Below are positions 722 to 27,744 of a stretch of 35,144 bases of DNA, piece after piece. The DNA is from a virus (Duplodnaviria > Caudoviricetes), in the IMG/VR virus record IMGVR_UViG_3300042815_000183, positions 1 to 35,144 of that record; one strand, 5' to 3'. Position 1 is the stretch's first letter. Each line of letters begins with the position of its first letter. The notes below the pieces were generated by a model, which saw nothing but the letters and a program-made list of their open reading frames with translations, had not been told where the DNA came from and searched no databases. Position numbers and translations under genes: made by a program.

Positions 722-3606
722 TGCACAACGACAAAGAAATCCGCATGAGCGGGTCCAAGTTTGTTATTCCTCTGGTTATCCCAGAAGAGACTGAGTCGGG
801 TGATGGTCGTATGTTCCGTAAGGACGCCATCGAAATCCGTGAACTTCCTCTCCCACTCTTGTGGCAAATCAAAACTGGCTCCGGCCACGACGGCTCTGTA
901 GTTGTCGGACGCATCGATCAAATGGAGCGTACCGAAAAAGGAATTGGAAACTGCTACGGCACTTTCGATGATGGTCCCTACGGACGCGAGGCCGAGCGCC
1001 TCGTCCGAAACGGTTTTCTGCGCGGTGTTTCTGCGGATATGGATCGCTTTGAAGCGGACGATAATCGCAAAGATAAAGACAAAGATGTGTCGGATATGGC
1101 TAAAAAACCAGACAAAATCAAAAAAGACAAAATTGTTGTAAATAAGGCTCGTGTAATGGCGGTTACAATAGTATCAAAGCCCGCTTTTCAGGAGTGCCAA
1201 ATTGCTCTTGCCAATGAAGGGCAAGAAGCCTACACTCAGGAGGAAACTGTGTTGACCGATGGCGTATACGCCGACGATGCTGACCCCATGGATGCCGCGT
1301 CATTAGTGGCGTGCGGCATGGTTGCTCAGCAGATCCCCGTCGTACCACCCAAGATGTGGTTCGAAAACCCTCGCCTCGATAAGGCGACCCCACTTACCGT
1401 CTCTGATGACGGCCATGTCTACGGACACATTGCGTCGTGGGAGACTGATCACATTGGTCTTCCCTTCGGCACTAAGCCACCCCGTAGCCGTGCCAACTAT
1501 GGATACTTCCACACTGGAGTTGTTCGCGTAGATGATGGAGCTGACATCCCTGTTGGCCAGCTTACTCTTGCTGGCGGTCACGCTGATTTGACCGCGTCGG
1601 CGGCTGAAGCCGTCAAGCACTATGACGACACCGCGAGCGCAGTTGCTGACGTTCACGCTGGCGAAGACCGCTACGGAATCTGGGTTGCTGGAGCACTTCG
1701 CCCCGGAGTCCAGCCCGAGCAAGTCCGTGCGCTTCGCGCGTCATCCCCTTCGGGTGACTGGCGTCCAATCCGTGGCTCGCTCGAGCTCGTCGCTGTCTGT
1801 CAGGTCAACGTTCCCGGATTCCCGATTGCACGAGCTCGCGTTGCGTCTGGCCAGGTTATGGCGCTTGTTGCTGCTGGTGCTGCCACTCTCGCTCGTATGA
1901 AGTCCAACCCCATTGACGATCTTCAGACTCGCCTCAAGCTTCTCGAGGAGAAGGAAAAGAATGCTCTGGTTGCGGCTGCCGATAAAGCTCGCATGGACTT
2001 TGCCAACAAGAAGATGAAGTCTTACGCTCCCAACATTGACAGCCGTTTGGCAGAAATGCTCCAGCAGACTCTTGCTGATGTGTCTGTCTTCGCGGCCAAG
2101 GTTCAAGGACACCACTGGAACGTTGAAGGAATGAACTTCCCACAACTTCACGAGTTGTTTGCCACCATCTACGAAGATGTCGAGGACTCGATTGACCCTC
2201 TCGCGGAGAACATCCGCAAAATGGGATACAAGGCTCCTTTTGATCTTGCTACCTTTGCCAAAATGAGCCAGTTCGGTGAGTCTGACTTAGGACCCAACCC
2301 CACGTGCCAAGAAATGATTGCTGACCTTCACAAAGTCAACGAGAGTGTCATTGGTCTACTCAAGGCTGTATTTGACGTAGCTGACCAAGCCAACGAGCAA
2401 GGTGTTGCTGACTTCATTGCTGGACGTATCGATTCTCACCAAGAGTGGGCATGGCAGTTGCGCGTATCGCTCGCTAACCGCGAAAAAGAAGAGTATAAAG
2501 CAGAGCGTATGGATCGTATGGAAGATTCCTACGAGGACGAAGACTACGACGCGTTCTTTGCTTCTCTCTCTAGGCAGGGTGTCCCCGAAGCAGGTCTCAC
2601 GGCTAGCGCGGGCGACCTTGTTCAGCGTGCCCGCGAACTCTCGGCTATTACAGAATTTGCTAAGTTCACCTCGAAGGAGCGTGAATCTCTTGCAGACAAG
2701 GGTCAGGCTCTTCCCGATGGTTCGTACCCAATTCGCAACGAATCTGATCTGAAGAACGCTATCCAAGCATTCGGTCGATCCAAAAAGTCAGATCGCGCCA
2801 GGGTTCGTAAGCACATCACTAAGCGTGCGCGAGCTCTCGGTAAAGCAAAGATGATTCCTGAAAACTGGAAAACTGCTGCTTCGGACTCTATCACCGCAAG
2901 CCTTGAGTCGATGCGTAACCGCACTGCAATCTTGGCTTCCGCTGAAGGAGATGCAATTATTGAAGCTGTTCGCCAGATTCGCGCCGGGAACATTCCTGAC
3001 CTGACCAATGTCAATCCCAAGCAGCTAGAGATTCTCCTCCCCGGTGTCAACATCCAAGACATCCTTGACGCAAAAGAGGGGAAGAACGATGGCCGTGTCA
3101 AGTACACGCCCAAGACTCAACCCCGCGATGCTCAGGGACGATTCCGTCAGGTACTTGCTCGTTTGAAGCAGGACCTCGGTGACTCAGGTAACTCGGATGT
3201 CCTTCAAAAAATTGAAGAAATTGAGAACCTTGACAATGCTGGTGACTACTTGGCTTCTGTTATGGCATCAAAAGACCTTCTTGATATTGTTGATCGTCTC
3301 GACGCTGGCGCACTGAACGCCGAGTCCCTCGAAAATGTTCGCTCGTCCACCACAGAACTTGGACGCGCGATTGCAAACCTCCCACTACCTTTCGACAACC
3401 AAGCGCAGAAAGTTCGCTACAGCGATCTTCCTCCTACGTTGAAGAACTTGATGGACGACATGATAACCCGTGTTGAAGCCAAGATTGGGAAAGAAGACGC
3501 CGATATTGCTACCCGGGAGCTGAAAGGCTTCCAAGCAGGATCGGATGTATACAGTCAAGCAGATATTTCATCGCAGATGAACCGTTTGCTTCGATTGCTA
3601 ACTTAA
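721..3606 (+). CDS. Capsid maturation protease polyprotein (protease domain(s) + Dps domain + small basic domain + QPRD-GRF motif + helical C-terminus)
   Basis: N-terminal DGR..PLPLLWQ..GH56DG..LRGVS104AD..VTIVSKPAF pattern of HK97/assemblin-type prohead proteases; lies directly before the major capsid gene; 961 aa. Confidence 0.85.
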   Translation: MHNDKEIRMSGSKFVIPLVIPEETESGDGRMFRKDAIEIRELPLPLLWQIKTGSGHDGSVVVGRIDQMERTEKGIGNCYGTFDDGPYGREAERLVRNGFLRGVSADMDRFEADDNRKDKDKDVSDMAKKPDKIKKDKIVVNKARVMAVTIVSKPAFQECQIALANEGQEAYTQEETVLTDGVYADDADPMDAASLVACGMVAQQIPVVPPKMWFENPRLDKATPLTVSDDGHVYGHIASWETDHIGLPFGTKPPRSRANYGYFHTGVVRVDDGADIPVGQLTLAGGHADLTASAAEAVKHYDDTASAVADVHAGEDRYGIWVAGALRPGVQPEQVRALRASSPSGDWRPIRGSLELVAVCQVNVPGFPIARARVASGQVMALVAAGAATLARMKSNPIDDLQTRLKLLEEKEKNALVAAADKARMDFANKKMKSYAPNIDSRLAEMLQQTLADVSVFAAKVQGHHWNVEGMNFPQLHELFATIYEDVEDSIDPLAENIRKMGYKAPFDLATFAKMSQFGESDLGPNPTCQEMIADLHKVNESVIGLLKAVFDVADQANEQGVADFIAGRIDSHQEWAWQLRVSLANREKEEYKAERMDRMEDSYEDEDYDAFFASLSRQGVPEAGLTASAGDLVQRARELSAITEFAKFTSKERESLADKGQALPDGSYPIRNESDLKNAIQAFGRSKKSDRARVRKHITKRARALGKAKMIPENWKTAASDSITASLESMRNRTAILASAEGDAIIEAVRQIRAGNIPDLTNVNPKQLEILLPGVNIQDILDAKEGKNDGRVKYTPKTQPRDAQGRFRQVLARLKQDLGDSGNSDVLQKIEEIENLDNAGDYLASVMASKDLLDIVDRLDAGALNAESLENVRSSTTELGRAIANLPLPFDNQAQKVRYSDLPPTLKNLMDDMITRVEAKIGKEDADIATRELKGFQAGSDVYSQADISSQMNRLLRLLT
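2041..2472 (+). other. dps: Dps (mini-ferritin) domain embedded in the protease ORF, aa ~441-584
   Basis: HHWNVEGMNFPQLHELF...IDPLAENIR...HQEWAWQL. H465, H477, D492 and E496 have the 12/15/4 spacing of the Dps ferroxidase ligands (Listeria H31/H43/D58/E62), with W466 following the first His. Confidence 0.93.
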
Positions 3607-6740: not shown

Positions 6741-7769
6741 ATGGCTACTCAAGACTACGCCGCCAGCATTCAAGGTGTTGCCATTCGTGTTACCCGGCTC
6801 GATGCCGACGGCAACCTTCTGAACGGTGCTGGTGACTCGTACACCACATCCGCGTTCATGCGCGTATCGTTCACCCCAGAATACGAAGAGGGTGACGAAT
6901 TCACGGAAAAAAGCGCCAACGGTGCTGTCTGCGTGACTTACAAGTCCCCCGACACACTCAAGCGTATCACGATGGAACTTGCCATCTGTGAGCCCGACCC
7001 CGAACTCTCGGCCCTCCTCTCTGGTGGACTCTTGCTTCGCAAGAACACTGGATCGGCAGTACAGTCCATTGGTTGGGCTGCTCCCGGCGTTGGAGACGAC
7101 CCTGCTGGTAACGGTGTTTCCATCGAAGCTTGGTCCATTGCCATCAAGGATGGACGTAAGGCTGCTTCGTACCCCTACTTCCACTGGGTTTTCCCATTCG
7201 CCAAGCTCCGCCAGTCGGGCGACCGCGTTATCGAGAACGGAATGCTCGCAACGACATTCGAAGGTTACGGCCTTGGAAACATTGCGTTTGACTTCGGACC
7301 CGACAACCGCTGGGAGTTCCCACAGGCTTCGGACCGCCCCTACTCGTACGCACGTGCGACATGGGCTCCAACCGGACTCAAGGGCTTCTACACGTGGGGT
7401 GTCACTGACACAATCACTAACGTTGTTGCTGCTGCTGGTACTGTCACCATTACGACAGACGGCGCACACGGCTTCCGCGTTGGTGATGAAGTGACGGTCG
7501 CAGCTGTTACAGCTGGTGCAACCGTAAACGGAACCTTCCCCATCACGGCTGTCCCAACTACAACCACGTTCAGCTACGCCAAGTCGGGTACTGTCGCATC
7601 GGCAGTCGAGACTGGAACCGTCACGAACTACGGAGCCTACGCTGAAGTTGCAACAGGATCGCTTGATAACGACATTGCTATCAACGTCCCTGGAAACATC
7701 AACTACAACGCTGACAACGCCATCGACAACGTGGTAGTCGCGCAGACAGGCCCAACTGGAGCGCCCTAA
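6741..7769 (+). CDS. Major tail (tube) protein with C-terminal accessory beta-module
   Basis: IRVTRLD..G, PEYEEGDEFTEKSANGAVC, CEPDPEL and YFHWVFP motifs of actinophage tail tube proteins; SD AAGGAG; followed by a hairpin. Confidence 0.85.
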   Translation: MATQDYAASIQGVAIRVTRLDADGNLLNGAGDSYTTSAFMRVSFTPEYEEGDEFTEKSANGAVCVTYKSPDTLKRITMELAICEPDPELSALLSGGLLLRKNTGSAVQSIGWAAPGVGDDPAGNGVSIEAWSIAIKDGRKAASYPYFHWVFPFAKLRQSGDRVIENGMLATTFEGYGLGNIAFDFGPDNRWEFPQASDRPYSYARATWAPTGLKGFYTWGVTDTITNVVAAAGTVTITTDGAHGFRVGDEVTVAAVTAGATVNGTFPITAVPTTTTFSYAKSGTVASAVETGTVTNYGAYAEVATGSLDNDIAINVPGNINYNADNAIDNVVVAQTGPTGAP

Positions 7770-10917: not shown

Positions 10918-13900
10918 ATGGCAGTTGTCGGTACCGCTGAGATTATTGTTAGGGCTATTACAAAAGATGTAGCCAACGACATTCGCACTGGATTTAAAGA
11001 CGTCGAGGCTGAAGCCAAGCGTGCTGGTATCAATGCTGGACGTAACTTTAGCAGGTCGATGAACATGAATATCGATCCAGACTCTGGTCTGGGTCGATTG
11101 ATGCTTCGTCTTAAAGAGATTTCTCCGAATGCTAAACAAGCAGCCGACGCTTTTACTGCTCTTGTCCGAAAAGGCTATTACGTTCAAGCGGGGTTGGGTG
11201 GAATTGTAGGGGCTATTGGTTCAATTGTTGGTGGACTTGGAGCTCTAATCGGGGCGGCAGGTGCTGCTTCCGCTTCAGTTGTCGCTCTTGGTTCTTCGCT
11301 TGCATCCACCTTGACGGGTTTTGCCCTGATGAAGTATGCATTGGGTGGGGTCGGTGCTGCGCTACAAGAATCTGCTGGAGGAGGCGGTGGTGGTGGCGTA
11401 AGTGGAGTCGATCAAGCTCTGCGTAACTTAGCGTTAACTGTTGAGCGCAATGTGGAGTCAATCGCCAATGCCAACAACAATTTGCGCGATGCTCAGTTGG
11501 GTCTTAATGAAGCCTACAAAGAAGGTGCGGAGTTCCTCCAGCAATTAGGCTTCCAGGCAGAAGAAGCCGCTCTGAGTCAAGAACGCGCCGGAATGTCACT
11601 GGAAGAGGCAAGGGAAAACCTTGCTCGAGTACAGGACCTCCCACCCAACTCTCGAGCGCGACGAGAGGCTGAAATTGCTTTTCGAGAGGCCGATCTCAAC
11701 TATCGTCAGGCGGTTGACGCCAATTCTGATCTTGCAAAAGAGCAAGATAAATACTCCTCGGCAGGTATTGAAGGGACTGAAGCAGTATTGGACGCGAAGG
11801 AGCGTCTACTCCAAGCTGAAGAAGATTTAGCCAGAACTGTACGAGACAATCTCCGCGCACAGGAACAAGCAGAGGAAGCACTCGCACAAGCTCGACGGGG
11901 CGGCGGGGGAGCGGCCTCAGCTCAGCAGTCTGCCTACGACAAACTGACCAAGAGTCAGAAACGGTTTGTTGATTTTCTTAAAAAGGAAATTATTCCTGAA
12001 ACTAAAAATCTTAAAGAAGCTGTAGCAAAAGGCTTCTTACCTGTTCTAGAAACTCAGCTTCGTCGTCTCAAGGATGGTGGCTTTTTTGAAGCGCTTGAGA
12101 CGGGGTACGAAGCTGTCGGTGTCGGTCTAGGAAAAGCAACAGAATCATTCAATAACGCATTTATCAATAATGGCGGCATTGACGCCATGCAACAGTTTTT
12201 CCTTCAAACTGCAAAAGTGATGCCTGCTGTCGGTGAGAGCCTAGGAAGTATTGCTAGTTATGTGCTGTCCCTTTTTAAGGCCGCTGAACCCCTAACTGCT
12301 CGATTTACTGAGTGGGTTACAGGAGTGGCTGGAGGTTGGGCCAACTCGCTTGACACCGCTGGTGAAATAACAAATCTACAAAATTTCTTTGAAAAAGCTG
12401 GCAACTTGGCCGCCATGTTTGGCGATGTCTTTGGAAACGTCTTTGACGGAATTGGTGACTGGATTGATCTCAACCTTTCCCCCGGATCAGGCGGATATCA
12501 GATTGTTGAATGGCTCCAAGAAATTTCTGAAGGATTTGCAAATATTGATCGGGTGTGGCTCGATTCTTACTTCCGCCAGTCGTCTCGAAACTTTATTGAA
12601 ATTGGGGATTCTATAGGAATACTTCTCAATATTATTGCTCGGGCTGGGGGAGACAGCAATATTGAAGAGTTGTTTGAAAATCTGAATCAAGGTGCCTTAT
12701 ACATAGCCAACATTGGACGAGAAGCCTTAAAAGTTGCGCCAGAGATTGGACTTCTTCTTCTTAATATTACTAAATTGTTGTCAGCTTTCGCAGACTCTCA
12801 GGCAACTCAAGCGTTCTTTAGTGTAATCAACACAATGACGGGCGGGTTTGCTGCAGTCGCCAGAGCCGCACAACACATAATTGAACCAGTTAGTCAAGTT
12901 TTCGGGTTTATTGCCGGATTTGGGGCTTTGGCCCGGGCGATGGAGAAAGTTAAAGACGTAGCCGCTGGCTTCTTGGAGCCAGTCCTCGAAGGATTCCAGA
13001 ACTTTAAAGAAGTTTATGCTGTAGCTGTAGCCACAATTGAGGGATCTAAGGGCACATACAGTGGGTTTAAGGACGCCTTCAAACAGATGGCTGACGGTAT
13101 AAATGCTTCTAGTGGGGGCCTAGAAACATTTAAAGGCGGGCTATCGACGTTTGGCGGAGCCAGTAAAGTTGCGTTCTCTTCGCTCATCAAGTCAATTGGG
13201 CCAGGTGGTTTAATTGAACTTGGGCTTGCAGCTATATCCACTACAGTTGTGCTTATTGGTGGACTTATTGAAGAGAACATGCGAAAAAAGATGGAGGCTG
13301 CCACTGACGCATTTGAAGATGGTACAGACGCAGTAAGTCTACTCAATAGTGTTCTTGAAGAAGGTGACTGGACCGGGGGAGAATATATTGATCTAACTCT
13401 GGGAGACATAGCTAATGCCGCAAAAGAAGCTGCCACACAAATTAAAAAAACTGAGGAAGCAATCGGCGGTGCTGCAGTCACTCTGCGAGGTGAGCTGGTT
13501 CAAGCAGGTATCGATGCTAGGGACCCAAACACAAGTGGTGCAGAAGCACTAAAAGCCTATAAAACTGCAATTACTTCTGTCGGAGATAGCCTTGCACAGG
13601 TTGCTACTACTGATCTAGCCCTTGCACAGGAAAGATTTAGAAAACTTCGAGATGAGTTGGGATTCAACAATCAACAGCTGATTGATACCGAATCTCTTAC
13701 AGGTGATTTTAGAGACACTCTGATTGCTCAAGCCGATGCATTAGATATCAGCATTATGGGCACAAATGGCTTAGTAGACGAACAAAAACTGATGGCATTT
13801 GCCGTTGGTGAAGGTGACATTGCCATCAGGAGACAGAATGAGGCCCTAAGAGAAAATGATGATGAACTTAGTAAATTGATCTCGGCCACGGCAAACACCA

Positions 13901-14790
13901 CCGACGCTGCCGCGGCTGGGTGGGCAAAAGGTACCTTTAACCTTAAAGAGTACAATAAAGCTCTTGAGAAAAACATAGAGGCCATCGCTGAGTCTTTTAC
14001 AAACACTCAGGAGTTAATTGCTAGAGGATTTGATCAAGATTTAATTGCTGCGTTCACAGAGGGAATGGACCCCGCGCAAGCAGCAGCGGCTCTCCAAGTT
14101 TTAGTAGACGCCAGTGACAAAACGTTGAGTCAAATCAAAGACAATCTTTTACGTAGCGGAGATGATTACAACACTGCTCTAATCAAATTTACTGAAGGGA
14201 CTGCCACTGAAACAGAAAAAGCGGCTAAGCGTGCATTCGACAATAACTTAATTAATCTTGAAACTTTCTTAGATGTCATGAGCGGTGAATTAGAGTCGTT
14301 CGACACCAAAGTCACAATTGGAGCAGACACAACTGCGTTTGACGCTATTGAAACCAACGCACGAATGGCCGCTGATAAAGCACAATCAACCGTCAAAATT
14401 AGCGCCGTTGCTCAACCAAAGAGTGGAACAATTTCGGTTGCTGGAATCCCCTTCCCCTTCAAGTTCTCAGGATTCAAGAACGGTGGTATGGTCGGAGCAC
14501 TTAACATGATGGGCTTTGCCAACGGAGGAATGGTTTCAGGCGGTGGCTACGGTGGAGGTCGATCGGACCGCATCCCCGCCATGCTCTCCAACGGTGAGTA
14601 CGTTGTCAACTCTGGAGCCGCGGCTCGTAACCTTTCTACTCTCAATGCGATAAACTATGGCGGAGCCTCGGTGGGATCTGGCTCAACCGTCAACATCACC
14701 GTAAACCCCTCCCCCGGAATGGACGAGCGCGAACTCGCGTCCGTTGTCTCTCAGGAACTTATGCGTCAAATGCGTCGAGGTAGTATCTAA
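10918..14790 (+). CDS. Tape measure protein
   Basis: 1290 aa, Ala/Gly-rich helical; N-terminal VGTAEIIVRA; C-terminal FANGG..G...SDRIPAMLSNGEYVVN and VNITVNP motifs; follows the chaperones. Confidence 0.92.
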   Translation: MAVVGTAEIIVRAITKDVANDIRTGFKDVEAEAKRAGINAGRNFSRSMNMNIDPDSGLGRLMLRLKEISPNAKQAADAFTALVRKGYYVQAGLGGIVGAIGSIVGGLGALIGAAGAASASVVALGSSLASTLTGFALMKYALGGVGAALQESAGGGGGGGVSGVDQALRNLALTVERNVESIANANNNLRDAQLGLNEAYKEGAEFLQQLGFQAEEAALSQERAGMSLEEARENLARVQDLPPNSRARREAEIAFREADLNYRQAVDANSDLAKEQDKYSSAGIEGTEAVLDAKERLLQAEEDLARTVRDNLRAQEQAEEALAQARRGGGGAASAQQSAYDKLTKSQKRFVDFLKKEIIPETKNLKEAVAKGFLPVLETQLRRLKDGGFFEALETGYEAVGVGLGKATESFNNAFINNGGIDAMQQFFLQTAKVMPAVGESLGSIASYVLSLFKAAEPLTARFTEWVTGVAGGWANSLDTAGEITNLQNFFEKAGNLAAMFGDVFGNVFDGIGDWIDLNLSPGSGGYQIVEWLQEISEGFANIDRVWLDSYFRQSSRNFIEIGDSIGILLNIIARAGGDSNIEELFENLNQGALYIANIGREALKVAPEIGLLLLNITKLLSAFADSQATQAFFSVINTMTGGFAAVARAAQHIIEPVSQVFGFIAGFGALARAMEKVKDVAAGFLEPVLEGFQNFKEVYAVAVATIEGSKGTYSGFKDAFKQMADGINASSGGLETFKGGLSTFGGASKVAFSSLIKSIGPGGLIELGLAAISTTVVLIGGLIEENMRKKMEAATDAFEDGTDAVSLLNSVLEEGDWTGGEYIDLTLGDIANAAKEAATQIKKTEEAIGGAAVTLRGELVQAGIDARDPNTSGAEALKAYKTAITSVGDSLAQVATTDLALAQERFRKLRDELGFNNQQLIDTESLTGDFRDTLIAQADALDISIMGTNGLVDEQKLMAFAVGEGDIAIRRQNEALRENDDELSKLISATANTTDAAAAGWAKGTFNLKEYNKALEKNIEAIAESFTNTQELIARGFDQDLIAAFTEGMDPAQAAAALQVLVDASDKTLSQIKDNLLRSGDDYNTALIKFTEGTATETEKAAKRAFDNNLINLETFLDVMSGELESFDTKVTIGADTTAFDAIETNARMAADKAQSTVKISAVAQPKSGTISVAGIPFPFKFSGFKNGGMVGALNMMGFANGGMVSGGGYGGGRSDRIPAMLSNGEYVVNSGAAARNLSTLNAINYGGASVGSGSTVNITVNPSPGMDERELASVVSQELMRQMRRGSI

Positions 14791-17510
14791 TGGCACGAAC
14801 TAATCTAGCCCCCAACCCGTCTTTCAAAACAAACACGACGGGGTGGTCGGCAACCGAAAACTCCACCATCCTTCGATCAAATGATGTGGCGTTCTTTGGT
14901 GACAACTCTCTCAAGATCACCAACAAGGGTGTAGGCCTTTATGGCACTACTACCACCAACATCACTGGATTTACCGCAGGTCTGTCCTATGCGTTTTCGG
15001 TGTATGTGTACCTGCCTGACAACCCCACCGCTACTGCGTACTATAACGACATTGAAATGCAGGTTGTATTCTACGACAGTAGTAACAACATCGTCGGCTC
15101 TACATCGCCCACGTCAGGTGTTCACCGCGTCTTCGACAATGACCGATGGGAAGACAATCGACTCTCTATCGTAGCAACAGCACCTGCTGGGGTTTCGTAC
15201 GCGATTGCAACCATTCAAGCCAGTACTGATGTTTCTTCAGCCACTGAAGTCTTCTACCTCGATGCTCTCCTTATTGAGCAGGCTTCTAAGATTAATGAAT
15301 ATTTTGACCAGCTCAGCGACACTCCCGCCAACGAGCAGGGTCGCGAAAAAGAACTGGTCAACCGCGCTCTTACCCCTACCCCAATTCCTCACATCACGGG
15401 GCCTGAGCTCAATGCCGACATTTCTTTGGGCCGTCTGATATTTAACACGGTGGACGAAGACGGAACCGTGTGGGTCTGTACTGACCTCACTGGCTGGTGG
15501 GGGCAGACATCCCCTGACGTCCCGGACATCACTCGTGGAACAGAGGACGGCTCGTTCGACGTGTCGGGACGGTATATGGCCCGCGTTATCACGCTCTCAG
15601 GAGTATTCCTTCCTCAGAGCCGTGACTACCTGCCCAAGGCCCTTGACCGACTCATTACTGAAACAGACTTGGTTCGACGCACTTCCACTCTCCGTGTCGA
15701 CGAGGACCCGACCAAGATCGCCGAGGTACGCCTTGTCGGACAGCCTGTTATTACGACAGTAAATGCTCGTGGACGCACCGAGTTCTCCATCACCCTTCGG
15801 GCCGCTGACCCTATCAAGTATGCTTGGGCCATCAATCAGGTTCACGGATATGAACTCAGGGGTATTAATGGTTTGGAACCAGATGCCTCTACTAGCCCAA
15901 CGAGCGCCTCGGCGTCAACGACGGTAGTAAACGCCGGAAATACAACGGTCACGCCGACTATTACTGTTCTTGGCCCCATCGGCTCGGGCAGTACCATCCG
16001 CGCTACCAGTCGAGACCGTGACGAAACAATCACGCTTGTCTCAGCGTTGCGAGACGCTGGGGCCATTGCGAGGGCTACGTCCTACACCCGTGAGAACTTG
16101 GTGGTCACAGTAACAACCGATGCCGACCACGGTCTGCTGGTTGGGGACACCATTTCTTTCAATTGGACTACCATTGATTACAACATTGACCCACAAGTAA
16201 GTGATCATGTTGTCACTGCTACTACCACTCAGACACCATTCACATTCTCGTACTCACTTGCTGGTGTGTCACTGTTTGGAACTGACGCTGGGCAAGATAT
16301 TGTTTCTACCACAATTACGGGTGGAGCCGATGTAAAGCTGACAAACCCAGACACTCTGGTTATCGACAACTACAACAAAGAAGTGTCGTTCAACGGAACT
16401 ACCATCGGACAGCGTTCTAAGCTCGAGCCGCTCATTGACTGGATTAAATTAGATGCGGGCACGACGACTGCCACTCTTACTGATAGTTTTGACAACTACA
16501 CAGTTGTCAACAAGCAATTCTCTCGGACCACAACTACAGCTACTGCTACCGTTAAGTTTGATCGAGCACACTTTCTCGGCGTAGGAGACACGGTAAATGT
16601 CTTCCTGCCTGAGAGCATTGACATCTCCACAACTGCAGCAGTAGCGTCAACAGATGTTGTGACTGTCAATACTGATACGGCTCATGGGTTTGGTGTGGGG
16701 GACGTTGTCACGGTAGAGGTCAGAGAAGCAAGAAACATTACGCAAAAAGCCTACGACGCTACTGGCGATATCGCTACTCTCACCCTCAACGCCAATCACT
16801 CTTGGGCCGACACTAACCGAATTAGTGTGGCACTCCCGTCCACCGCCACCGCGACATCGTACTCCTTCAACACCAGTACCGATATTGTAACAATTGGAAC
16901 TCAAGCAGCACACGGATTTGTTGCGGGCGACACAGTCAATATCGCTAACCCAGCCCTCTCCTCAATTGCCACCAAGAGCATGAGCGCGGCGGGCGTTGCA
17001 ACACTTACTACCCGAACAGCACACGGTCTGACCACTGGAGGCGACGCGTTGGTTGTGTTGCCAGTAAGCACAACGCTTGCTCTTAAGGCAGTAAGCGGAA
17101 CAACGGTAACTATGGCCACAACGACTGCACATGGGTTTTCAGTGACAGACCGTGTGGCCATCGATCTGCCAATCACCGCCACAGTTGATGCCTTTGCATA
17201 CGGCGGGTTCGCCACTCAACTCGTCACCGTCACGACGACAGCCGCCCATGGCTTTTCCATCGGAGATCAAATTACGACAGCATTCAATTCTACCTACGAC
17301 TCGTATGAAGGTACGTACTACATTCAGTCCGTCCCGACTACAACATCTTTTACCTACTACTACTTTGGGTCTCAAACTGCTTCCGTTGCCGAGGACGGTA
17401 CGGCCACCGGAACAATTACCAACGTGACAAATACTGGCCTCAATAGTGCAGGCACGGCTATCACGTCCGTCCCCACCCCCACGACATTCACATACACGAA
17501 GGCGAGCTAA
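14790..17510 (+). CDS. Distal tail (Dit-like) protein: N-terminal CBM-like domain, Dit core, nested beta-repeat stalk
   Basis: TNLAPNPSF...W CBM4/9-like start; GWWG..P..R...DG...R.ITLSG, LRAADPIKY, VNAGN...P and LVIDN Dit motifs; multiple T.T..AHG...GD repeats. Confidence 0.75.
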   Translation: MARTNLAPNPSFKTNTTGWSATENSTILRSNDVAFFGDNSLKITNKGVGLYGTTTTNITGFTAGLSYAFSVYVYLPDNPTATAYYNDIEMQVVFYDSSNNIVGSTSPTSGVHRVFDNDRWEDNRLSIVATAPAGVSYAIATIQASTDVSSATEVFYLDALLIEQASKINEYFDQLSDTPANEQGREKELVNRALTPTPIPHITGPELNADISLGRLIFNTVDEDGTVWVCTDLTGWWGQTSPDVPDITRGTEDGSFDVSGRYMARVITLSGVFLPQSRDYLPKALDRLITETDLVRRTSTLRVDEDPTKIAEVRLVGQPVITTVNARGRTEFSITLRAADPIKYAWAINQVHGYELRGINGLEPDASTSPTSASASTTVVNAGNTTVTPTITVLGPIGSGSTIRATSRDRDETITLVSALRDAGAIARATSYTRENLVVTVTTDADHGLLVGDTISFNWTTIDYNIDPQVSDHVVTATTTQTPFTFSYSLAGVSLFGTDAGQDIVSTTITGGADVKLTNPDTLVIDNYNKEVSFNGTTIGQRSKLEPLIDWIKLDAGTTTATLTDSFDNYTVVNKQFSRTTTTATATVKFDRAHFLGVGDTVNVFLPESIDISTTAAVASTDVVTVNTDTAHGFGVGDVVTVEVREARNITQKAYDATGDIATLTLNANHSWADTNRISVALPSTATATSYSFNTSTDIVTIGTQAAHGFVAGDTVNIANPALSSIATKSMSAAGVATLTTRTAHGLTTGGDALVVLPVSTTLALKAVSGTTVTMATTTAHGFSVTDRVAIDLPITATVDAFAYGGFATQLVTVTTTAAHGFSIGDQITTAFNSTYDSYEGTYYIQSVPTTTSFTYYYFGSQTASVAEDGTATGTITNVTNTGLNSAGTAITSVPTPTTFTYTKAS

Positions 17511-17512
17511 AC

Positions 17513-19645
17513 ATGCCAGTAATTGGAGGCACAACTTCTACTTCATTTAGTACAGATTCAGGATATGTACAAACATCGCTAACACCAGCCGCTTCGGCGC
17601 GTGTGGCATTCAACGGTAACAGGCCAATTAAGATTACCCGGCTTCGCACCTACGTTTCTTCTTACGACGAAGTTGGAAACATTGTTGCCAGCATTGGAAG
17701 CTTTAGTGGAACATTTAATAACGTCGCGATTGACTCAACTCCTGGGCTCTCTAGCTGGGTAACACTTTCAGGTTCTTTTATTAATGGAAGCACATCTACC
17801 AATTTCCGACTTAACCCATCAACGGGCGGTGGTGTCTACTTTAAACGATCTAGTTCAGGAACTACGACCAAAGAAGACGGATATACGTGGGCTGGAACCA
17901 TGTACTGCGAATACGACTACGCTCAAGTACCTGCTGCATCAGCGGCACTTCAAGTATCTGTTAGTAGCGGTACAGGTGTTGTAAGTTTGCAGTGGGACCA
18001 ATTTCCTGATAACGGCGGCTCAACCATTACTGGGTTTGACATCTATCGAGGCACAGCAACAGGCACTATCACAACGCTGATTGGTAGTGTCACCGGAGGG
18101 ACTTTCTCCTACACGGCACCAGACAGCACTCTGTATTACTACCACGTCAGGGCAAAAAATGCTGTATCAACCGCAGCTAGCACCACTGGTCCGGCCTCAA
18201 ATGTGGTCTCTGCGGCTGCATCATTTAGCGTAGACGATCAAAGACCGACAGCCCTTACCGCCACTGCCAGCGGAACTACAGGGCAAATTAACTTGTCGTG
18301 GACGGCACCAGCAATCCCAGCCACACCTAGTAGCTACGGCTATCGAATTTACAGGAATGGCGTTCTGATACATACCATTTCCTTGGCCAATCCCCCAGCT
18401 ACAACATATACTGCAACGGGGCTGACTCCAGGTGTTCAGTATAGTTTCTACGTTACTGCACTTAGCTCGGCTGGTGCGGAAAGCGCTGCTTCTAACACTG
18501 CTACCGCCACAGCACCCGGTGCGGCGGCGGCCCCATCAGCTATTGCCGTCACATCAGTCATTACAACAACGGCTCTGGCCTCAATCGAAGTTCCCAAGCA
18601 ACTTCGTATTTCGTGGACCGCGCCAGCGGATATGACCAGTACTGGTGGATACAAAATCTACCGGAACGATGTTCAAATTGCTGGAGTTGGTGTGGCGGGT
18701 TCTATTATTGGAAATATGACAACCCCCTTCTACATTGACAGCGATGCAGCGTTGATTGCCGGAACCGAGTACACCTACACAATTCGAGCGTACTTAGCGA
18801 GCTCTAGTGAAGTTGGTATCCTGTCAGCTCCCGTCTCAGGGATCCCTGTGAACGCATCTGTTCAAGCCGTTACAGACACGGTGGCAAACTTGACCAACGC
18901 TGAATTTGACGGGACCTATGACGACGTAGTCACTGTCATCAGTCCTACGACATTTAGCTACCCCGTGGCGGGCGGAACAGCATATTCAGTTCAGTCAGTA
19001 GATGATGGTTTCGGAACTGTCTCGGCGTCCTTGCTTGCAATCTTTGGGAATGACTACGCAATTGCGACAGCCGCAGATACCTCCTTTACTTTTGCATTCA
19101 GTAGCGCTCTGCCCAGTATCACTACTCCAATTAGTATTAGCGCTACTGCCACCAACAAGACAAATGCTGCCTTGAGCGGTAATTTCACAGTAGACGCTAG
19201 TACCCCAACTCGGCCTACTTCAACTGTCAAATACTCTGTCACGGGTGCGGCACTGACCGCGAACATTACGACAATTGCCACTGCTGGAACTGCAAACAAC
19301 CTAGACTCGGGCGTAATCAATGACACAAGGCCTGTGGTAACCGTTCCGTCTGCGTCGTCATTTACGTATGTCAAGACCAGCGGAGGCGGAATTGCTACAG
19401 ACCAGGCTGAAACTATCACTACCGGTGTAGTCACTGTTCCGGCCAATAAAAATATCTACAATGGCGTCAGCAAAACTGTCACAAGTATCCCTCGATACGA
19501 CACTGTGGTCTATACGACTACCGGAGTTGCGGACTCTGGTGAGACCAGTGAAAATGTGAGCCCTACTTTCCCCGAAGAAACCGCTCGACGAACATCCAGC
19601 ACTGCATCGGCTGAAATTGAATACCGCTCAGGCTGGATTGGGTAG
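17513..19645 (+). CDS. Minor tail protein with three fibronectin type III domains, repeat C-halves and a Dit-like terminal strand
   Basis: Three FN3 signatures (LQW/LSW/ISW...Y/F.IYR...Y...V/I.A); ends ...AEIEYRSGWIG. Confidence 0.75.
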   Translation: MPVIGGTTSTSFSTDSGYVQTSLTPAASARVAFNGNRPIKITRLRTYVSSYDEVGNIVASIGSFSGTFNNVAIDSTPGLSSWVTLSGSFINGSTSTNFRLNPSTGGGVYFKRSSSGTTTKEDGYTWAGTMYCEYDYAQVPAASAALQVSVSSGTGVVSLQWDQFPDNGGSTITGFDIYRGTATGTITTLIGSVTGGTFSYTAPDSTLYYYHVRAKNAVSTAASTTGPASNVVSAAASFSVDDQRPTALTATASGTTGQINLSWTAPAIPATPSSYGYRIYRNGVLIHTISLANPPATTYTATGLTPGVQYSFYVTALSSAGAESAASNTATATAPGAAAAPSAIAVTSVITTTALASIEVPKQLRISWTAPADMTSTGGYKIYRNDVQIAGVGVAGSIIGNMTTPFYIDSDAALIAGTEYTYTIRAYLASSSEVGILSAPVSGIPVNASVQAVTDTVANLTNAEFDGTYDDVVTVISPTTFSYPVAGGTAYSVQSVDDGFGTVSASLLAIFGNDYAIATAADTSFTFAFSSALPSITTPISISATATNKTNAALSGNFTVDASTPTRPTSTVKYSVTGAALTANITTIATAGTANNLDSGVINDTRPVVTVPSASSFTYVKTSGGGIATDQAETITTGVVTVPANKNIYNGVSKTVTSIPRYDTVVYTTTGVADSGETSENVSPTFPEETARRTSSTASAEIEYRSGWIG

Positions 19646-19679: not shown

Positions 19680-22600
19680 ATGGCTACCGTAACCGCACCC
19701 GTTTATCGATACTTCACCGCCGATCTTCTCACGAATGAAATTCTTGAGGAAATCCCGTTCCGTGGAGTGTCGTACCAGCGTGCCCTGAACGGTGCTGGAT
19801 CTTTCTCAGGATCGATTCCAACCTCCGAGCAGACCAACTATCTCAACCTCTACTCGAGCACGACGCCGGGAAACACCGCTCTCTACATTGTCCGAGACGG
19901 AATCTGCGTCTGGGGTGGGATTATCTGGTCCCGGTCGTACGACGTTGTGCAGAAGACGCTCTCCGTCAGTGGTTCGGAATTTCCTAGCTACCTCTACCAC
20001 CGCAAGATTTGGAAGACTTACAGCCACACCCTCGGGTCTACGCTGACCGTGGAAAGCGGAGTCGGAACAGTAGACCTCGACCTTGGCTACACTAGCGGTG
20101 CTCTCAAGTCTGGCCGCACAGTAGAGCTGCAGTTCGCTGACTTCCGGTACGACGGCATCTACACAATTGCGTCGAGTCCAGCTCCCACAATTAGACAATT
20201 CACTCTTAATAGTCTCAATAGTGTGGTAACGCTGTCTTCTGCCTCGGTTGCAGACAACGTTGTGACCATTACTACCGTTGAGGACCACAAATATAGGACC
20301 GATGATCTCGTCACTATTGACTCATCCTTGACCAGTATCAACGGAACTGACTTCAAGATCACGGCGTCGGGGGTGGATAGCAAGCAGTTCTCTTACGCTC
20401 TAACCTTGGCCAACGCCGATAGCGCAACTATCACTGGCACAGGAACTCGAACTATCCCGGACGGCACTTATGACAAGGTCAACGTCTCGGTGCGGACCGA
20501 CACATACGACTACATCCGCGACTTGTTGTCGGGCATGGCCAGCGACTTTGTCGGTGTCAACTTTCCCAACGTCTACGTTGAGCCAGGACTCAGCTACTCA
20601 CTCGACATCGTCTCAAAGAAACTTGCTGATGGGTTCGCCACCATTACAACGGCTCAGCCGCATGGTCTTGTCTCGCAGCAGGCTGTCCAGATCAAAAATG
20701 TTGACGACAACTTTGACGGCGAGTACCGCGTCTACTCGGTCCCCAGCCCCACCACCTTTACGTTTGAAAAGACTGGAACACTCTCCCCAACTGCAGTAGC
20801 AAAATCGAAAGCAACCGTTACAAAGATGGTGGCGGTTGAAGGCCTCACTACAATTACAACAGCAGCAGCCCATGGATTTAGTGTTGGACAGACTGTTGAG
20901 GTCAACACTCAGATTGGCTCACTCGGATATGGGGGCTACTTCAACGGTTCGCAAACGATCACCGACACGACTGCAACTACCTTTACATATCAAGAGGCGT
21001 CTAAGGCCAGCGTCCCAGAAACTACGTTCAATAATGCAACTGCCACTGTTGGTGCGAGCTCGGCTGGTGTAGTGCAGGCGAAACTTACCTCCAATGTTGC
21101 CACCATTACAACGGATAAAGCTCACGGGTTTACTGCTGGTCAGTCAGTCGTAGTCGCTAACACTTCCCCGCTGATTCAAATTGCTTCCCGAGCACTTCGC
21201 GTTGCATCTGGTTCTGGTACTGCCACAGTACAGACTAGTGCGATTCACAGCCTGAACAATAGCGATGTGGTTGACATCACAGGACTTCAGGACTCGGCCT
21301 TTATTTTTTCGATTTACGTCAAAGACAATATTGCTACACTCAAGACTTCTAAATCAGTCAACTTTAAAAATGGCGACACCATAACCGTTTCTGGGGTCAG
21401 CACACCGACAAGAATCACCCACAAGTCCCGAACTAGTAACAGCGTCACTCTTACCCTGAGCACAGATGCCACATACAAGCATCCCTATTCAATTGGGGAC
21501 GAAGCAGTCATTGAAAATATCTATGACTATGTCACCGTACAAAAACAAAGAATTAGCAGTGCGGTAGCAACCCTAACAGTTCCGACAGGTCACGGAATTA
21601 CAGTTGGCACCACAATTACAGTTAAAAAGTGTACAGACTCTGAAACCCTGATTAGCAAGCGAGCCTCTCGCGGGTATGCCACTGTTACAACAGGTGGACC
21701 ACACAACTTTAGCTCTGGCGACACTGTCACAATTTCTGGAGCAGGGTCAGGCTTTAACGGAGAGCACCGCGTTACCGAACCCATTACCAGCAATAGTTTT
21801 AGCTATGAAGTAATCCTGGACGATGAGCTAGTAACGAGGCCCAACAGAAAAACAGTTGTTGCTGAAAAGTCCATTACCGGGACTGTAACTACCAATGAGG
21901 CCGTATTCAACGGCGACTTTGAGGTGTCTGCAGTTTCTGATACTACAGTTTCTTATCAGATTAACAACGCATACGACTCCCCCCTTACTACATCAGCGGG
22001 TACCGCTCAAATCGTGCTCTTGAGTCCGATGAACGGAACCTACGCCCTTACTAATGTATCTACTACTCAGATTACCTATACTCAAAACGGAGCCAATGTC
22101 GCCAATGTTGCCGTGGAGCGTCCTGATAAGAATATCGAAACACCGTACCCTACGGCCACCCCCAAGACTAATATCTTGAACGGCGATCGAGTCATCACAA
22201 AAGTTGATGGCAACACTCTTACGTTTGCGGTGACACCGCCTCGAAACTTTAAGACCGACCCAGTACTGGCGGGTATCGTCACCAAAAACAGCGTATTTAA
22301 TGGAACTAACAAGACAATTAGCAACGCTACAAATAATGTCTTTGACTACTCCGCTGGGGCGCAAACCACAGCAGTTACAGAAGATGTTGTAAACTCCGTT
22401 GCCTACGCTAAAGCCACGAGCATCTATAACGGGACAAAGACTATTCTGTCTAGTCCAGCCCCGACGGAAAAGACGTTCTCGTACTCGGTGACGCACGGCG
22501 ACCGATCTCCTGAACTTATCATTAGTCAGGGCTCAGCAACCGTGCGACCTGTCGCCATTGCTAGTACATTTGGACCATTCCCTGGCAGTGCGGACATCGG

Positions 22601-23384
22601 ACTGTTGTTCTCGACTCGGGAGGCGTCTGGAATTAACACCGACCCACCCATTCATCGCGGCTTTGAACTCACGACTGTTGGGGAGGCGCTGGAGAAGTAC
22701 GCATCGTCCGTAGACGGATTCGACTATCGCATTGACTGTGAGTACGACGAGTCGACCATGACCTTCACCAAGACTTTTGTTATGCTCCCCCTTGAGTACC
22801 CCAATCCGCCAGAGGCAGGTGTGGTATCTCCCGTTAGTCGATATGGGGCTGACGAGGTTATCTTTGAGTACCCTGGAAATATTGGAAAGTTCTCCGTCAA
22901 CGAAAGTGCAGAGAATGCGTCTACGCGAATGTTTGTGGTTGGTAACGAAAACGCTGGCGACGACTACGGCTCGAACATTGGTGTCGCTGCCTTGACTGAC
23001 TTCCTCGATGGATCGCGTGGACGCAAGTGGCCCCTCCTCGACTTTGACGAGAAGGCCGACGACGCCAACAACAAGACTATTTTGTACGGATACGCCCGAC
23101 GCTACGCCCTCGAGGCCGCACCTCCAATGGCCGAATTTTCCATTAGCGTGAACGGGGCGCTAGAACCAATTGTTGGATCATATGCTCCTGGTGACTGGTG
23201 CAGTATTGTTGTTCGAGACCCGTTCATTCAGGCTCGACTGAGCACTGACCTTGAGCCTCGTGATACCGTGCTAGTCCGTAAAATTGAGTCCTACTCGGTC
23301 TCAGTTCCAGACGGTGTGACCTTCCCCGAGGAAGTAACGCTGACAGTTATTCCTGAGTGGGAGGTGGATGGCTTTGGCGACTAG
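19680..23384 (+). CDS. Baseplate hub/Tal-like minor tail protein with about 10 inserted beta-modules
   Basis: N-terminal [17 protein letters not shown]...[23 protein letters not shown] and C-terminal FEYPGNI...GSYAPGDW motifs of actinophage minor tail proteins; central AHG..G repeats. Confidence 0.75.
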
Positions 23385-26300
23385 ACGCGTACGACGTAAC
23401 CGCAATGTCGGAAACAAGCTCAACGATCTCGAGTCGAGGGTTGACTCCAATGAGAAGAAGAAGATTCAAGATAACTCTGTTGGGGCTGCTCAGATTGCCA
23501 ATCAAGGTGTTGCCACCGACAACGTCCAAGATCGAGCCGTAACCAGCAACAAGATTGAGCTAGGTGCAATTAGCACCGAGCACTTGTCGCAGATCACTTC
23601 GCTGTCATCAGGTGGAGATTTGTCTTTGAATCTAGGCGATGAGGGCCATGTCGTACTTAATGGTGTCCGGTACGAATCTCCATATGACTCACTAGCAAGT
23701 GCTACTGGATTATATAGCTTAGCGTTTGATCCAGACACTAATGAAGTTTTAGTTTACCCGCAGCAACCTGGCGGCGATGCAGTCCTTACCCCCAGCGAGA
23801 TGAACTGGAAGCAGGTTACTGGAACCGGGACAACATCTGCCAACCCTACGCCACCTGTAACGCTTCTTGTTTTTGACAGTGACGGGACATATGTTCAGCC
23901 GAACAGTCCCCTTGTAACTGTTGGCGGTGCGGTTCTTGTTAGTGTGTCTGGGTATGTTCACGCAAACTCGACCCCACGAAGCTGGGTTGTTCAGTTGTAT
24001 CGAGGTAGCACTGCTATCGGCGTACAGCACTCATACGATTTCGACACAAGCAATGATGATTTAGCATTTGAGTTTAGTTTTATTGATGATGTAGCCGCTG
24101 GGACATATGTGTACTCCCTACGTCTAGTTAGCTCCCCCGCTGGAAGTCTTGACTGGTCTGCAGAAATGAATGTCATCGAGCTGATGGGATCCGTCGGGCC
24201 ACAGGGTAATACAGGAGTAACAGGCCCTACGGGCGCGATTGGTGCAACCGGAATTACGGGTCCAACAGGATCAGTAGGAGCTACTGGAGTTGCTGGTAAT
24301 ACTGGAGTAACAGGATCAACAGGTGCTATCGGAGTCACTGGCGCAACTGGCGCAACCGGATCAACTGGTGCCGTCGGTGCCACAGGTGCGGTAGGCGCGA
24401 CTGGTGCTGTCGGTAATACGGGCGCAGTTGGGGATACAGGAACAACTGGTGCCGTTGGACCAACAGGACCAACAGGCGCAACAGGTCCCACTGGCTCTAC
24501 AGGTGCAACAGGAGCAGGTGGGGCACTAGGCTACTACGGCTCGTTCTACGACATGACCGACCAACAACTTGCTTCTATTTCTGCGGAGCAAGTCATTGCA
24601 ATCGGTACCACGTCGGAGTCAAACGGCGTGAGCATCCAAAACGGCGACGAAGTTACATTTGCTTACGCTGGAACCTACAGCCTCACATTTTCTATCCAAA
24701 TTACCAACTATGCTAACTCTGTAGAGAAAGCAATTTTCTGGCTAAAGACAAATAACGTCGACTACCCAGACTCTGCCACTGAAATAGATTTACAGCCACG
24801 CAAAGCGGCAGACAACCCTAACCGCCAAGTAATCACAATCAACTATGTTGCAACTGCAACAGCGGGACAACAAGTACAGGTTTACTGGTCTGGCTCAAGC
24901 ACTCAACTTCGAGTAGAGTCCCTGCCCGCTGGCACGTCGCCAGTCTCTCCCGCAGTCCCGTCAATCATTCTTACCGCAGTACAGGTTATGTACACTCAAC
25001 TTGGACCGACGGGTGCTGTCGGCGCTACTGGTGTGACGGGACCCACGGGCGCTGTCGGGCCAACGGGCGCTCAAGGCGTAACTGGTCCGACTGGCTCGCA
25101 GGGTATTCAGGGAGTTACTGGACCGACAGGCGCACAAGGCATTCAAGGCATTCAAGGTCCGACTGGCGCACAAGGTTTGACGGGTGCCACGGGTCCGACT
25201 GGCGCTACGGGCGAGACGGGGGCAGTAGGAAATACTGGGGCAACTGGAACCAATGGAATTGACGGTGCTACTGGTGCTCAAGGAAATACTGGTGTAACTG
25301 GGGCAACAGGGGCAGTCGGAAATACTGGACCAACTGGCGCAATCGGTAATACGGGTGCACAAGGTGAAACTGGAGCTGTTGGTCCCACTGGTTCAGTTGG
25401 TAATACTGGAGCACAAGGAGTTACAGGTGCAACTGGCGCAGTAGGTAACACAGGCGTTACTGGACCAACGGGTGCTGACTCAACTGTTGTTGGACCAACA
25501 GGAGCTGTCGGTCCGACTGGTGCTGTAGGTGCTACTGGAAATACTGGATCACAAGGCAACACTGGTCCAACAGGTGCTGTCGGAGATACAGGTGCTGTCG
25601 GAAATACTGGAGCAGTAGGAAACACGGGTGCAACTGGTGCTGATAGTACGGTTGCTGGGCCTACGGGCGCAGTCGGGGCAACGGGTGCGGTGGGCGCGAC
25701 TGGTGCTACTGGTGCAACAGGTGCTACTGGTCCTACGGGTGCCGATAGTACGGTTGCTGGGCCTCAAGGAAACACTGGAGCAACAGGAGCAACAGGTCCT
25801 ACAGGCGCGGACTCAACAGTAGCTGGTCCTACGGGAAATACTGGTGTGACAGGATCAACAGGATCAACAGGATCAACTGGTTCAACTGGTGCAACAGGTT
25901 CGACAGGGCCAACCGGCCCAACACCATCTTCTTCAGTAATACTTCGTCTAACCGTCACGGGTGGGACGTCAGTAGACCTTACTGGCGCACCTGCAATTGT
26001 CTATGCTGTACTTGCAGCAGGTGGCGGTGGAGGAGGCGGCACCAGCGGCGCTACCTCGGTAGCTGCTGGTGGGGGTGGGGCAGGAGCCGTAGTTTCAGGC
26101 TGGGTGCCTGCACTAAGCACAGTCACCCTTGGAGCCGGCGGCTCGGGGGGAACTACGACGGCTGGCGGAACCGGAGGAACCTCGTACTATTCTGGGCTGG
26201 TCGCTTTTGGGGGAGCTGGCGGTGGACTCGGCGGAGGGGTCGGTTCGGCTGGGTCTAACGGTTCAGCCGGCGGAGGCGGCGGCGGAAGCACGACAGTCGG

Positions 26301-26805
26301 ATTTGCTGGAGGCGCATCAAGTTCAATCGGGTACAACGTCGGCGGATCGGGCGGAGCTGGAGTTTTTGCAGCTGCTTTTGCAGGAGGAACTGATGGTACA
26401 CCCGGAAGCTCTGGAGGAGGTGGTGGATCAGCGGTGACTTCTGGAACAGCAAGCAACTCTGGAGGTGGGACTGGCGGAACCGGACTGGCTGGAGGTGGCG
26501 GTGGCGGGGCGTACAACACGTCGGCCTCAAACACCGGAACTGCTGACGGCGGCTCCGGAGGAGCTAGTTTTAGATTCTCTGGTGGGTCTACTGCCGTATC
26601 TGGGAGCAGTACAGGAGTTAAAGGCTCATCTGGAGCTGGTGGCGCTGGAATTGCAGCTGCTGGCTCAAACGGAGCTTCAGGTACAGGATCAGGAGCACGT
26701 ACCGGAGGAGCCGGAGGAGCCGGAGGAGGCGGAGGCGGAGGAGCCGCAGGCCTTTCCGCAACTGGCGGCGCTGGCGGAGCCGGTGCGCTCCTTCTGTACT
26801 GGTAG
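23368..26805 (+). CDS. Collagen-like tail fibre with C-terminal glycine-rich domain
   Basis: Two long Gly-X-Y blocks (about 24187-24520 and 25003-25923; [12 protein letters not shown]) flanking a YYGSFYD beta-domain; Gly-rich C-terminus ending LLYW; 17-nt overlap with the upstream gene. Confidence 0.85.
25849..25875 (+). repeat. 9-bp tandem repeat (acaggatca)x3 within the collagen block
   Basis: acaggatca acaggatca acaggatca, encoding TGS x3. Confidence 0.75.
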
Positions 26806-26817
26806 GAGTGAGACCCT

Positions 26818-27744
26818 ATGTTTGGTAATCTTTTAGTTCCCGAGGGTATGACCCTTAGATATACGTTTGCAAGTAGCGCGTACAGTCCGGGAGTTTACCA
26901 CACAGTAGATCTTACTGATGCACCTACCTTTGTTTTTGCTATCGTCGTTGGTGGTGGAGGCGCTGGAGGTAGCAGTAACGCACTTGGCCAAAGTGCGGGG
27001 GGAGGTGGTGCTGGAGCAATTAGTTATGGCTTAGTTCCTGCCTCGAGCAAGGCGTACTTTGGAGCCGGAGGCGTCGCAACTTCAAGTGGCTCAAATAACG
27101 GCAATCCGTCAGCCTACTCAACGCTTTACGCTGAAGGTGGGGCTGGCAGCCTTGGAGGAAATAACAGTGTGACGTCTGTAGCAAAATACGGTGCTGGCGG
27201 AGCTGGCGGACCAAAAGGTGGTAACAGCGGCACTATCTCTGGCGGTGCAGGAAGCACCCTGTGGTACAGCATTGGTGGCGCTGGTGGCGCTGGAGTTTCG
27301 GAGGACAATGCCAATGTTGGTAATCCTGGACAAGACGGCTCCTCTGGTGGAGGTGGTGGGGGCAGAACCAACCCGTCAACTACGGGACAAAATCCGTGCG
27401 TTGGAGGGGACGGTGGAAGTGGTTGGGTCGGTGGTGGTGGGGGGTCTGGAGTAACAAAGGATGCAACTCAGTCAGCCACCACCAGCGGGGGCAACGGTGG
27501 CAGCTCATACGCAGGATATTCTGGCGGAATAGGCGGAAGCATAACAAACTCAACAGACCGCGCCGCAAGTGGTGGCGGAGGAGCTGGGTACCTGGGGGAC
27601 GGATTCAATGGTTCGGCTGCTAGAACTTCTACCGGAGCCGTCGGAGGAGCTGGAGGAAATGGCGGGGGAGGCGGAGGCGGAGCAGGAGGCGACAACTCTT
27701 TAGGTGGAAATGGCGGAAACGGTTGTGTCCTTATTTATTGGTAA
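26818..27744 (+). CDS. Glycine-rich tail-tip protein, paralogous to the fibre C-terminal domain
   Basis: VDLTDAPTFVFAIVVGGGGAGG...GCVLIYW versus [22 protein letters not shown]...GALLLYW upstream; SD AGGAG. Confidence 0.8.
   Translation: MFGNLLVPEGMTLRYTFASSAYSPGVYHTVDLTDAPTFVFAIVVGGGGAGGSSNALGQSAGGGGAGAISYGLVPASSKAYFGAGGVATSSGSNNGNPSAYSTLYAEGGAGSLGGNNSVTSVAKYGAGGAGGPKGGNSGTISGGAGSTLWYSIGGAGGAGVSEDNANVGNPGQDGSSGGGGGGRTNPSTTGQNPCVGGDGGSGWVGGGGGSGVTKDATQSATTSGGNGGSSYAGYSGGIGGSITNSTDRAASGGGGAGYLGDGFNGSAARTSTGAVGGAGGNGGGGGGGAGGDNSLGGNGGNGCVLIYW

Follow-up and report, generated by a model that had tools for sequence, protein, structure and literature searches.

A siphophage Dit whose stalk is probably a nest of barrels shared between two adjacent genes

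The window analyzed here (the whole 35,144-nt stretch) holds two neighboring tail genes that each carry unpaired halves of the same repeated module, which raises the question of whether both products fold separately or build one structure together. The surrounding genes form a siphophage structural module with major head (3726), major tail (6741), and tape measure (10918) genes, followed by ORF14790 (phrog_5577), ORF17513 (fn3), ORF19680 (phrog_1885, at the Tal position), and a collagen-like fibre gene. ORF14790 occupies the place of a Dit gene, with the tape measure gene (10918-14790) upstream and the Tal-like ORF19680 downstream, and its partner ORF17513 lies between Dit and Tal. A tblastn search with the Dit core and stalk against 50,697 phage records matched eight, of which seven are Microbacterium phage records and one is an Actinomycetia phage; the host of the window phage is thus likely actinobacterial. 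The two genes contain the following features.

14790..17510, + strand: Dit chain 1 (906 aa), with CBM-like N-terminal domain, ring and peripheral domain, and outgoing stalk, without the Dit last strand (phrog_5577, AlphaFold2 model)
14790..15299, + strand: CBM4_9/CBM22-like N-terminal domain, ~aa 1-170 (Pfam CBM_4_9, E 2e-4, below cut-off)
15384..16496, + strand: Dit core, aa 199-569, ring and galectin-like domain with one complete barrel module inserted at ~16056-16346 (VIA-align)
16521..17039, + strand: orphan N-halves N1-N5, without a C-half in the same chain (half-module HMMs, model)
17085..17507, + strand: N6-N7-C7-C6, two barrels closed within chain 1, predicted arm tip (pLDDT 86-96)
17495..17515, + strand: gene junction with purine-rich last Dit codons, TAA, 2 nt, and ATG (sequence; translational coupling likely)
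17513..19645, + strand: partner chain 2, 710 aa (translation, Pfam, alignment)
17513..17926, + strand: variable N-terminal head, aa 1-138 (57-69% identity to two close relatives)
17927..18850, + strand: FN3 string, three domains by motif pattern, of which Pfam resolves one stretch, aa 245-329 (fn3, E 2e-17)
18887..19528, + strand: five orphan C-halves, read as C5 to C1, putative returning stalk (HMM, alignment)
19616..19642, + strand: IEYRSGWIG, Dit terminal strand (same motif at the end of 87 unsplit Dits)

The earlier note on this DNA had counted seven consecutive N-halves but just two C-halves in ORF14790, and five C-halves followed by IEYRSGWIG in ORF17513. All of these elements are present. 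Specifically, the quoted N-half motifs occur at aa 594, 632, 670, 708, 745, 781, and 820 (spacing of 36 to 39 aa), the two C-halves behind them were recovered both in the translation and by HMM, and the five C-halves of ORF17513 match the quoted translation, were scored by HMM, and follow FN3 domains, one stretch of which Pfam resolves. IEYRSGWIG ends ORF17513 and is absent from the end of ORF14790. The order after the Dit core is thus seven N-halves and two C-halves in ORF14790, five C-halves in ORF17513, and, in ORF19680, several complete modules followed by six N-halves and six C-halves. Because the window supplied the seed for the N- and C-half HMMs, which were then rebuilt on 350 matches in 309 proteins, these profiles are not fully independent of it. 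With them, the stalk N-halves of the window scored 24 to 41 bits and the seven C-halves 12 to 42 bits, while 86,818 block-shuffled residues scored no higher than 12.1 (N) and 10.9 (C). Support for the weakest C-half (ORF17513 aa 515-532, 12 bits) comes mainly from its register in alignment A2.

Domain annotation gives little hint of this architecture. Pfam finds only weak FCCH fragments, with E1_FCCH bits of 35.8 in Tal (summed over weak stretches), 24.4 in Dit, and 20.2 in the major tail protein at a gathering score of 29.5, and the GenBank label for both genes is "minor tail protein". In the predicted structures, the module appears as an FCCH-like six-stranded closed beta-barrel, which aligns with the Uba1 FCCH domain at Z 8.4 to 8.7 and rmsd 2.2 to 2.6 Å in two models (Tal and chain 1). 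Over the E1_FCCH class (PF16190; Uba1 FCCH; K1F/phi92 endosialidase), the matches span 73 to 82 residues with Z 8.5 to 10.2 and rmsd 2.1 to 2.6 Å. In those proteins the barrel is a single continuous domain, whereas the one described here is cut at a fixed loop and, as argued below, probably nested. According to one report, FCCH barrels already occur as outward decoration of siphovirus tail tubes (PMC13576161), and a weak module in the major tail protein of the window parallels those described for other siphovirus tubes.

7434..7625, + strand: weak, single FCCH-like module in the major tail protein ORF6741 (Pfam E1_FCCH, E 6e-4, below cut-off)

The AlphaFold2 model of chain 1 (aa 199-906 alone, 92 sequences, pLDDT 84.9, pTM 0.56) identifies ORF14790 as a siphophage Dit. 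Seven solved Dits align with its ring and galectin-like domain over 221 to 254 residues (Z 10.5 to 12.6, rmsd 4.7 to 6.6 Å); VIA-align of model residues 1-371 scored 12.6 with Douge, 11.5 with Bxb1, and 11.3 with SPP1, and the SPP1 Dit is the top Foldseek match (E 2.5e-5). The complete barrel inserted in the core was matched at model residues 225-321 and the tip barrel at 595-685 (Z 10.1 to phi92 endosialidase, 8.7 to Uba1 FCCH). All strands of N6-N7-C7-C6 are present in the model with pLDDT 86 to 96. N1-N5, modeled without the partner, form hairpins with a mostly unpaired third strand (pLDDT 65 to 84) that are not predicted to be disordered; VIA-align returned no barrel match over N1-N5, an absence that is uninformative for this comparison. 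Like the Dits and evolved Dits of SPP1 (gp19.1, 2x8k), p2 (2wzp), 80alpha (6v8i), Douge (8zdo), and Bxb1 (9d93), ORF14790 follows the tape measure gene, precedes Tal, and combines a ring with a peripheral domain whose loops host extra modules. Evolved Dits, as described in PMC7291167, carry one or two CBMs in galectin-domain loops. The CBM-like domain of ORF14790, which matches xylanase CBMs (E 4e-5, profile A1), is instead N-terminal, and the loop inserts are FCCH-like barrels. A further difference from evolved Dits is that the insert would be a seven-level barrel nest, for which a second gene encodes five of the barrel halves along with the strand that normally ends Dit.

It is this last strand that would tie the two genes to one fold. 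Chain 1 ends in a C-half and the terminal motif of the family is found on ORF17513, so that ORF14790 by itself falls short of a whole Dit, which the two-gene unit contains. Consistently, alignments to the chain 1 model stop 10 to 21 residues before the ends of the SPP1, p2, 80alpha, monocin, and Douge chains (at SPP1 242/252, p2 284/298, 80alpha 301/314, and Douge 269/290), which fits a chain 1 that misses the Dit last strand. Comparison of 169 loci plus the window, which yielded 118 distinct Dits, supports the claim of the earlier note that IEYRSGWIG is a displaced Dit strand. A motif of the Y-R/K-S-G/A-W-x-G type ends 87 of the 118, all unsplit. Ten others are cut by the contig end or have no complete next gene, and in the 21 evaluable Dits that lack the motif it ends the next gene in 18 (including L091, the window's own sequence) and neither gene in three split loci (L135, L136, and L143).

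The break between the genes is real. An indel, raised in the earlier note as a possible source of the split, is absent from the assembled contigs of runs X2 and X3, which belong to the same study as the possible source run and cross the junction (TAA-ac-ATG) with zero differences, and also from one contig of run X9 (another study), which differs from the window across the junction by 22 substitutions and is ungapped. No RNA run is listed among those that carry this sequence. Two IMG/VR relatives with 77 to 85% identity break at the same residue, and four cultured Microbacterium phages carry two annotated genes in the same layout (Cece gp81/82, Pumpernickel gp95/96, Zooman gp83/84, and A3Wally gp98/99); DSL-LC01 has a short, unsplit Dit. 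This recurrence makes an assembly error or a decayed gene hardly conceivable, even though the junction comparison covers contigs rather than raw reads.

A conserved joining of both ORFs by stop-codon readthrough or programmed frameshifting, which would render the nest intramolecular, is the more substantial objection. Of 24 junctions, 13 are in frame, 8 are at +2, and 3 are at +1, and six of the in-frame junctions present a single TAG, which speaks for such a joining. The other seven, however, hold a second in-frame stop, and the frame varies between sister genomes (TAA+2 in the window versus TAG+3 in L001 and L002; TAA+2 in L096 versus TAG+6 in L012). Several of the 24 junctions have an SD-like stretch ahead of the second ATG, and the sole X XXY YYZ site found (17364) lies upstream of a second-frame stop at 17444. 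Readthrough or frameshifting is therefore very unlikely. A spacing of -1 to 24 nt between the genes, together with purine-rich sequence ahead of the second start, suggests that translation of Dit and partner is coupled.

The earlier note had proposed that each module was inserted into a loop of the previous one. The Tal gene of the window provides an internal control in a single chain.

21069..22499, + strand: single-chain nest of six N-halves followed by six C-halves in Tal ORF19680 (HMM, AlphaFold2 model)

VIA-align placed solved barrels of ~70 residues on the Tal model at residues 201-289 (N6/C6), 166-329 (N5/C5), 87-418 (N3/C3), and 47-463 (N2/C2), with the phi92 endosialidase barrel (Z 10.2) and the Uba1 FCCH domain (Z 8.5) as best matches; none of the matches listed spans N1/C1 or N4/C4. 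These ranges are concentric, as nesting demands, in a model of aa 452-965 that was built from only eight sequences (pLDDT 71.4, pTM 0.50, two of five models at ~42). Together with graded natural intermediates, the Tal model speaks for modules inserted into one another. Specifically, the single-chain Dits P0137-P0139 hold one module at this site ahead of the terminal motif, the single-chain Dit of L046 contains a shallow nest, and the Tal series runs from CNCNC through CNCNNCC to 6N6C. The insertion point after the GD strand is fixed: xP occurs in 361 of 656 N-then-N transitions versus 1 of 154 N-then-C, and Gx in 4 of 656 versus 97 of 154, respectively. The Dit stalk is probably nested like Tal. 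Deep Tal nests also stand beside unsplit Dits (L026, L123, and L168). No single-chain deep stalk was found among the 120 matches listed of 276, seven longer matches, and 118 distinct locus Dits, the deepest being L046, although these searches were word-limited and provide weak evidence of absence.

The Dit stalks of relatives vary in length, yet most keep the same number of N-halves without a C-half. Among the 120 listed Dit matches (of 276), 112 lack the terminal motif and 107 have a usable anchor. In these, N minus C after the Dit core equals five in 79, 86, and 80 proteins at thresholds of 11.5, 7, and 5 bits, respectively. The shortfall of five is kept across the layouts 7N2C, 8N3C, 7N-C-2N-3C, and NC-7N2C, with seven, eight, or nine N-halves, and modules gained within chain 1 are whole N+C pairs (e.g., in L001). 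It deviates from five in 21 to 28 of the 107, most of which read four; since the latter include proteins 83 to 92% identical to the window Dit, many of these uncurated cases look like HMM misses or wrong anchors. On the partner side, 30 of 36 partner-like proteins have five C-halves, five have four, and one has six, and all five C-halves are in register in 17 of 17 aligned partners. The sequences are kin, and a ring-domain tree (104 rows; nine lacking an anchor were left out) separates the 24 split rows from all others at one branch (support 84/81). Hence, the homologue counts are not independent events, and they may reflect conservation after one event, in agreement with a single origin of the split.

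The constancy of this number bears on whether the half-repeats of each chain could fold independently of the partner, the N-halves among themselves and the C-halves as a beta repeat of their own, so that chain 2 would dock via its last strand only. Barrels of the FCCH-like class are pseudo-symmetric, and N1-N5 keep their pLDDT of 65 to 84 when modeled alone, as expected from self-folding. Such folding, however, gives no reason for a shortfall fixed at five while N-halves vary from seven to nine, nor for partners without the last strand that retain five C-halves, and the same halves pair N with C in the Tal model. We thus regard self-folding halves as improbable and favor pairing between the chains.

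The register of this pairing is less directly accessible. In a mirror test based on half-to-half similarity, the nested order came out at rank 1360 of 5040 when Dit and partner were combined and at rank 456 of 720 in Tal. The test has no power, because Tal, which is nested in its model, reaches only this rank. Pairing in another register or between neighboring Dit subunits would cross-link the arms into a skirt around the tail tip instead of leaving six separate rods, and the lack of power of the mirror test leaves room for it, as do the six copies that sit close together on the Dit ring (PMC7291167). Nonetheless, since the terminal strand has to reach the Dit core, the last C-half is placed next to N1, and the Tal model has the reverse order. 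A skirt is accordingly a quite unlikely outcome.

What we consider the likely explanation, in line with the earlier note and held with good though not full confidence, is an obligate heterodimeric nested arm, in which five barrels and the Dit last strand are completed between chains and an FN3 string hangs from a new free N-terminus. Chain 1 would build the ring and run outward through seven barrel N-halves, closing by itself no more than the two barrels farthest out. On its way back along the stalk, chain 2 would match its successive C-halves to N5, N4, and so on down to N1, and the Dit peripheral domain would be finished by the end of this chain. From a 1:1 ratio of both chains, given coupled translation, and a Dit hexamer, six such arms are expected. 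The chain break would endow chain 2 with a free N-terminus at level 5, from which the linear FN3 string and the variable head would hang; they are placed at this level because both sit just before the first returning C-half. A tandem string whose ends lie far apart seems ill-suited to the loop of one out-and-back chain, and we infer that fission was needed to hang it.

The arm would most likely be a spacer that holds host-surface adhesion modules away from the tail. Conservation is lowest in the head and the first two FN3 domains (49 to 69% identity, versus 73 to 89% in the stalk and 88 to 91% in the core), and fn3 is present in 17 of 17 partner genes scanned. A contig of run X4 departs from the window immediately behind the Dit stop codon, with 141 different letters in place of the 134 at window positions 17511-17644. 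Low conservation and this replacement of the head fit a swappable cassette with a putative role in adhesion. An atlas search with the ORF17513 head gave no match of at least 0.9.

Recursive insertion of a small domain into itself has a precedent in Si3 of the cyanobacterial RNA polymerase subunit RpoC2, a six-level nest in one polypeptide (PMC13114784 and PMC10895346) that an ECOD survey singles out as its extreme case. Si3 and the predicted phage arm share an elongated shape, several domains discontinuous in sequence, and self-insertion of one domain over several levels, as the concentric barrels of the Tal model illustrate. They differ in the module, which is a sandwich-barrel hybrid of an RNA polymerase subunit in Si3 and an FCCH/endosialidase-type barrel of a phage tail gene here (Foldseek against 8emb, TM 0.08 only), and in extent, since 7 to 9 N-halves would form a nest shared by two polypeptides. 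Judged by the models, the arm would work like Si3 without being a member of its type. Our literature search, which covered mainly abstracts and for the most part journals outside subscription, returned no description of a split Dit, of nested FCCH-like arms, or of a nest shared by two chains.

Out-and-back arms whose domains combine an N-part and a C-part are familiar from the AcrA/MexA membrane fusion proteins and streptococcal antigen I/II. Those are single chains with a different domain per level or a helical stalk, and they are not known to have a self-nested repeat. With moderate confidence, and somewhat more readily than not, we extend the proposal to a lineage of actinobacterial siphophages, which would build arms by recursive barrel self-insertion over 7 to 9 levels, i.e., beyond the six of Si3, and zip two chains through five half-barrel pairs plus a donated strand, fission having generated the swappable adhesion cassette and, in a clade of ~2-kaa partners, the return path perhaps being split over a third gene. 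If true, this is a repeat architecture missed by tandem-repeat and domain annotation, and protein designers would be interested in a rigid arm that can be tuned in length and is held by a noncovalent five-barrel zipper. The natural gradation from one module through two and six levels to the split form would show how nested domains grow and how gene fission can cut them. The proposal is directly testable, since four cultured Microbacterium phages carry the split arm.

A point against the proposed heterodimer is the ~2-kaa clade, which comprises 16 of the 36 partner-like proteins (1.9 to 2.2 kaa); these keep the C-halves and have no terminal motif. In its members (L135, L136, L143, and in part P0140-P0158), CBM-like domains come after the five C-halves, and the gene behind the partner is other than Tal. 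The Dit last strand of these phages may reside on a third gene; no motif was found in six frames of L135, L136, and L143, and a viral scan for the missing strand returned generic CBM-like matches only. Runs of three to four consecutive "TNxxxNP" starts of CBM-like domains in P0134-P0136 and L135 (11079-17546) suggest that a second domain type nests likewise. In other partner genes (L012 10854-13691, L067 10655-14164, and L094 9395-12667), additional modules, complete or nested, are inserted among the five C-halves or behind them.

Two further regions of the window deserve mention. The collagen-like fibre gene and a glycine-rich gene (23368-27744) differ wholesale in L001 and L002. Finally, in a 961-aa ORF at 721-3606, a region of the head-maturation protease/portal family is joined to a Dps-type, ferritin-like domain at aa 445-584 (E 3e-19).
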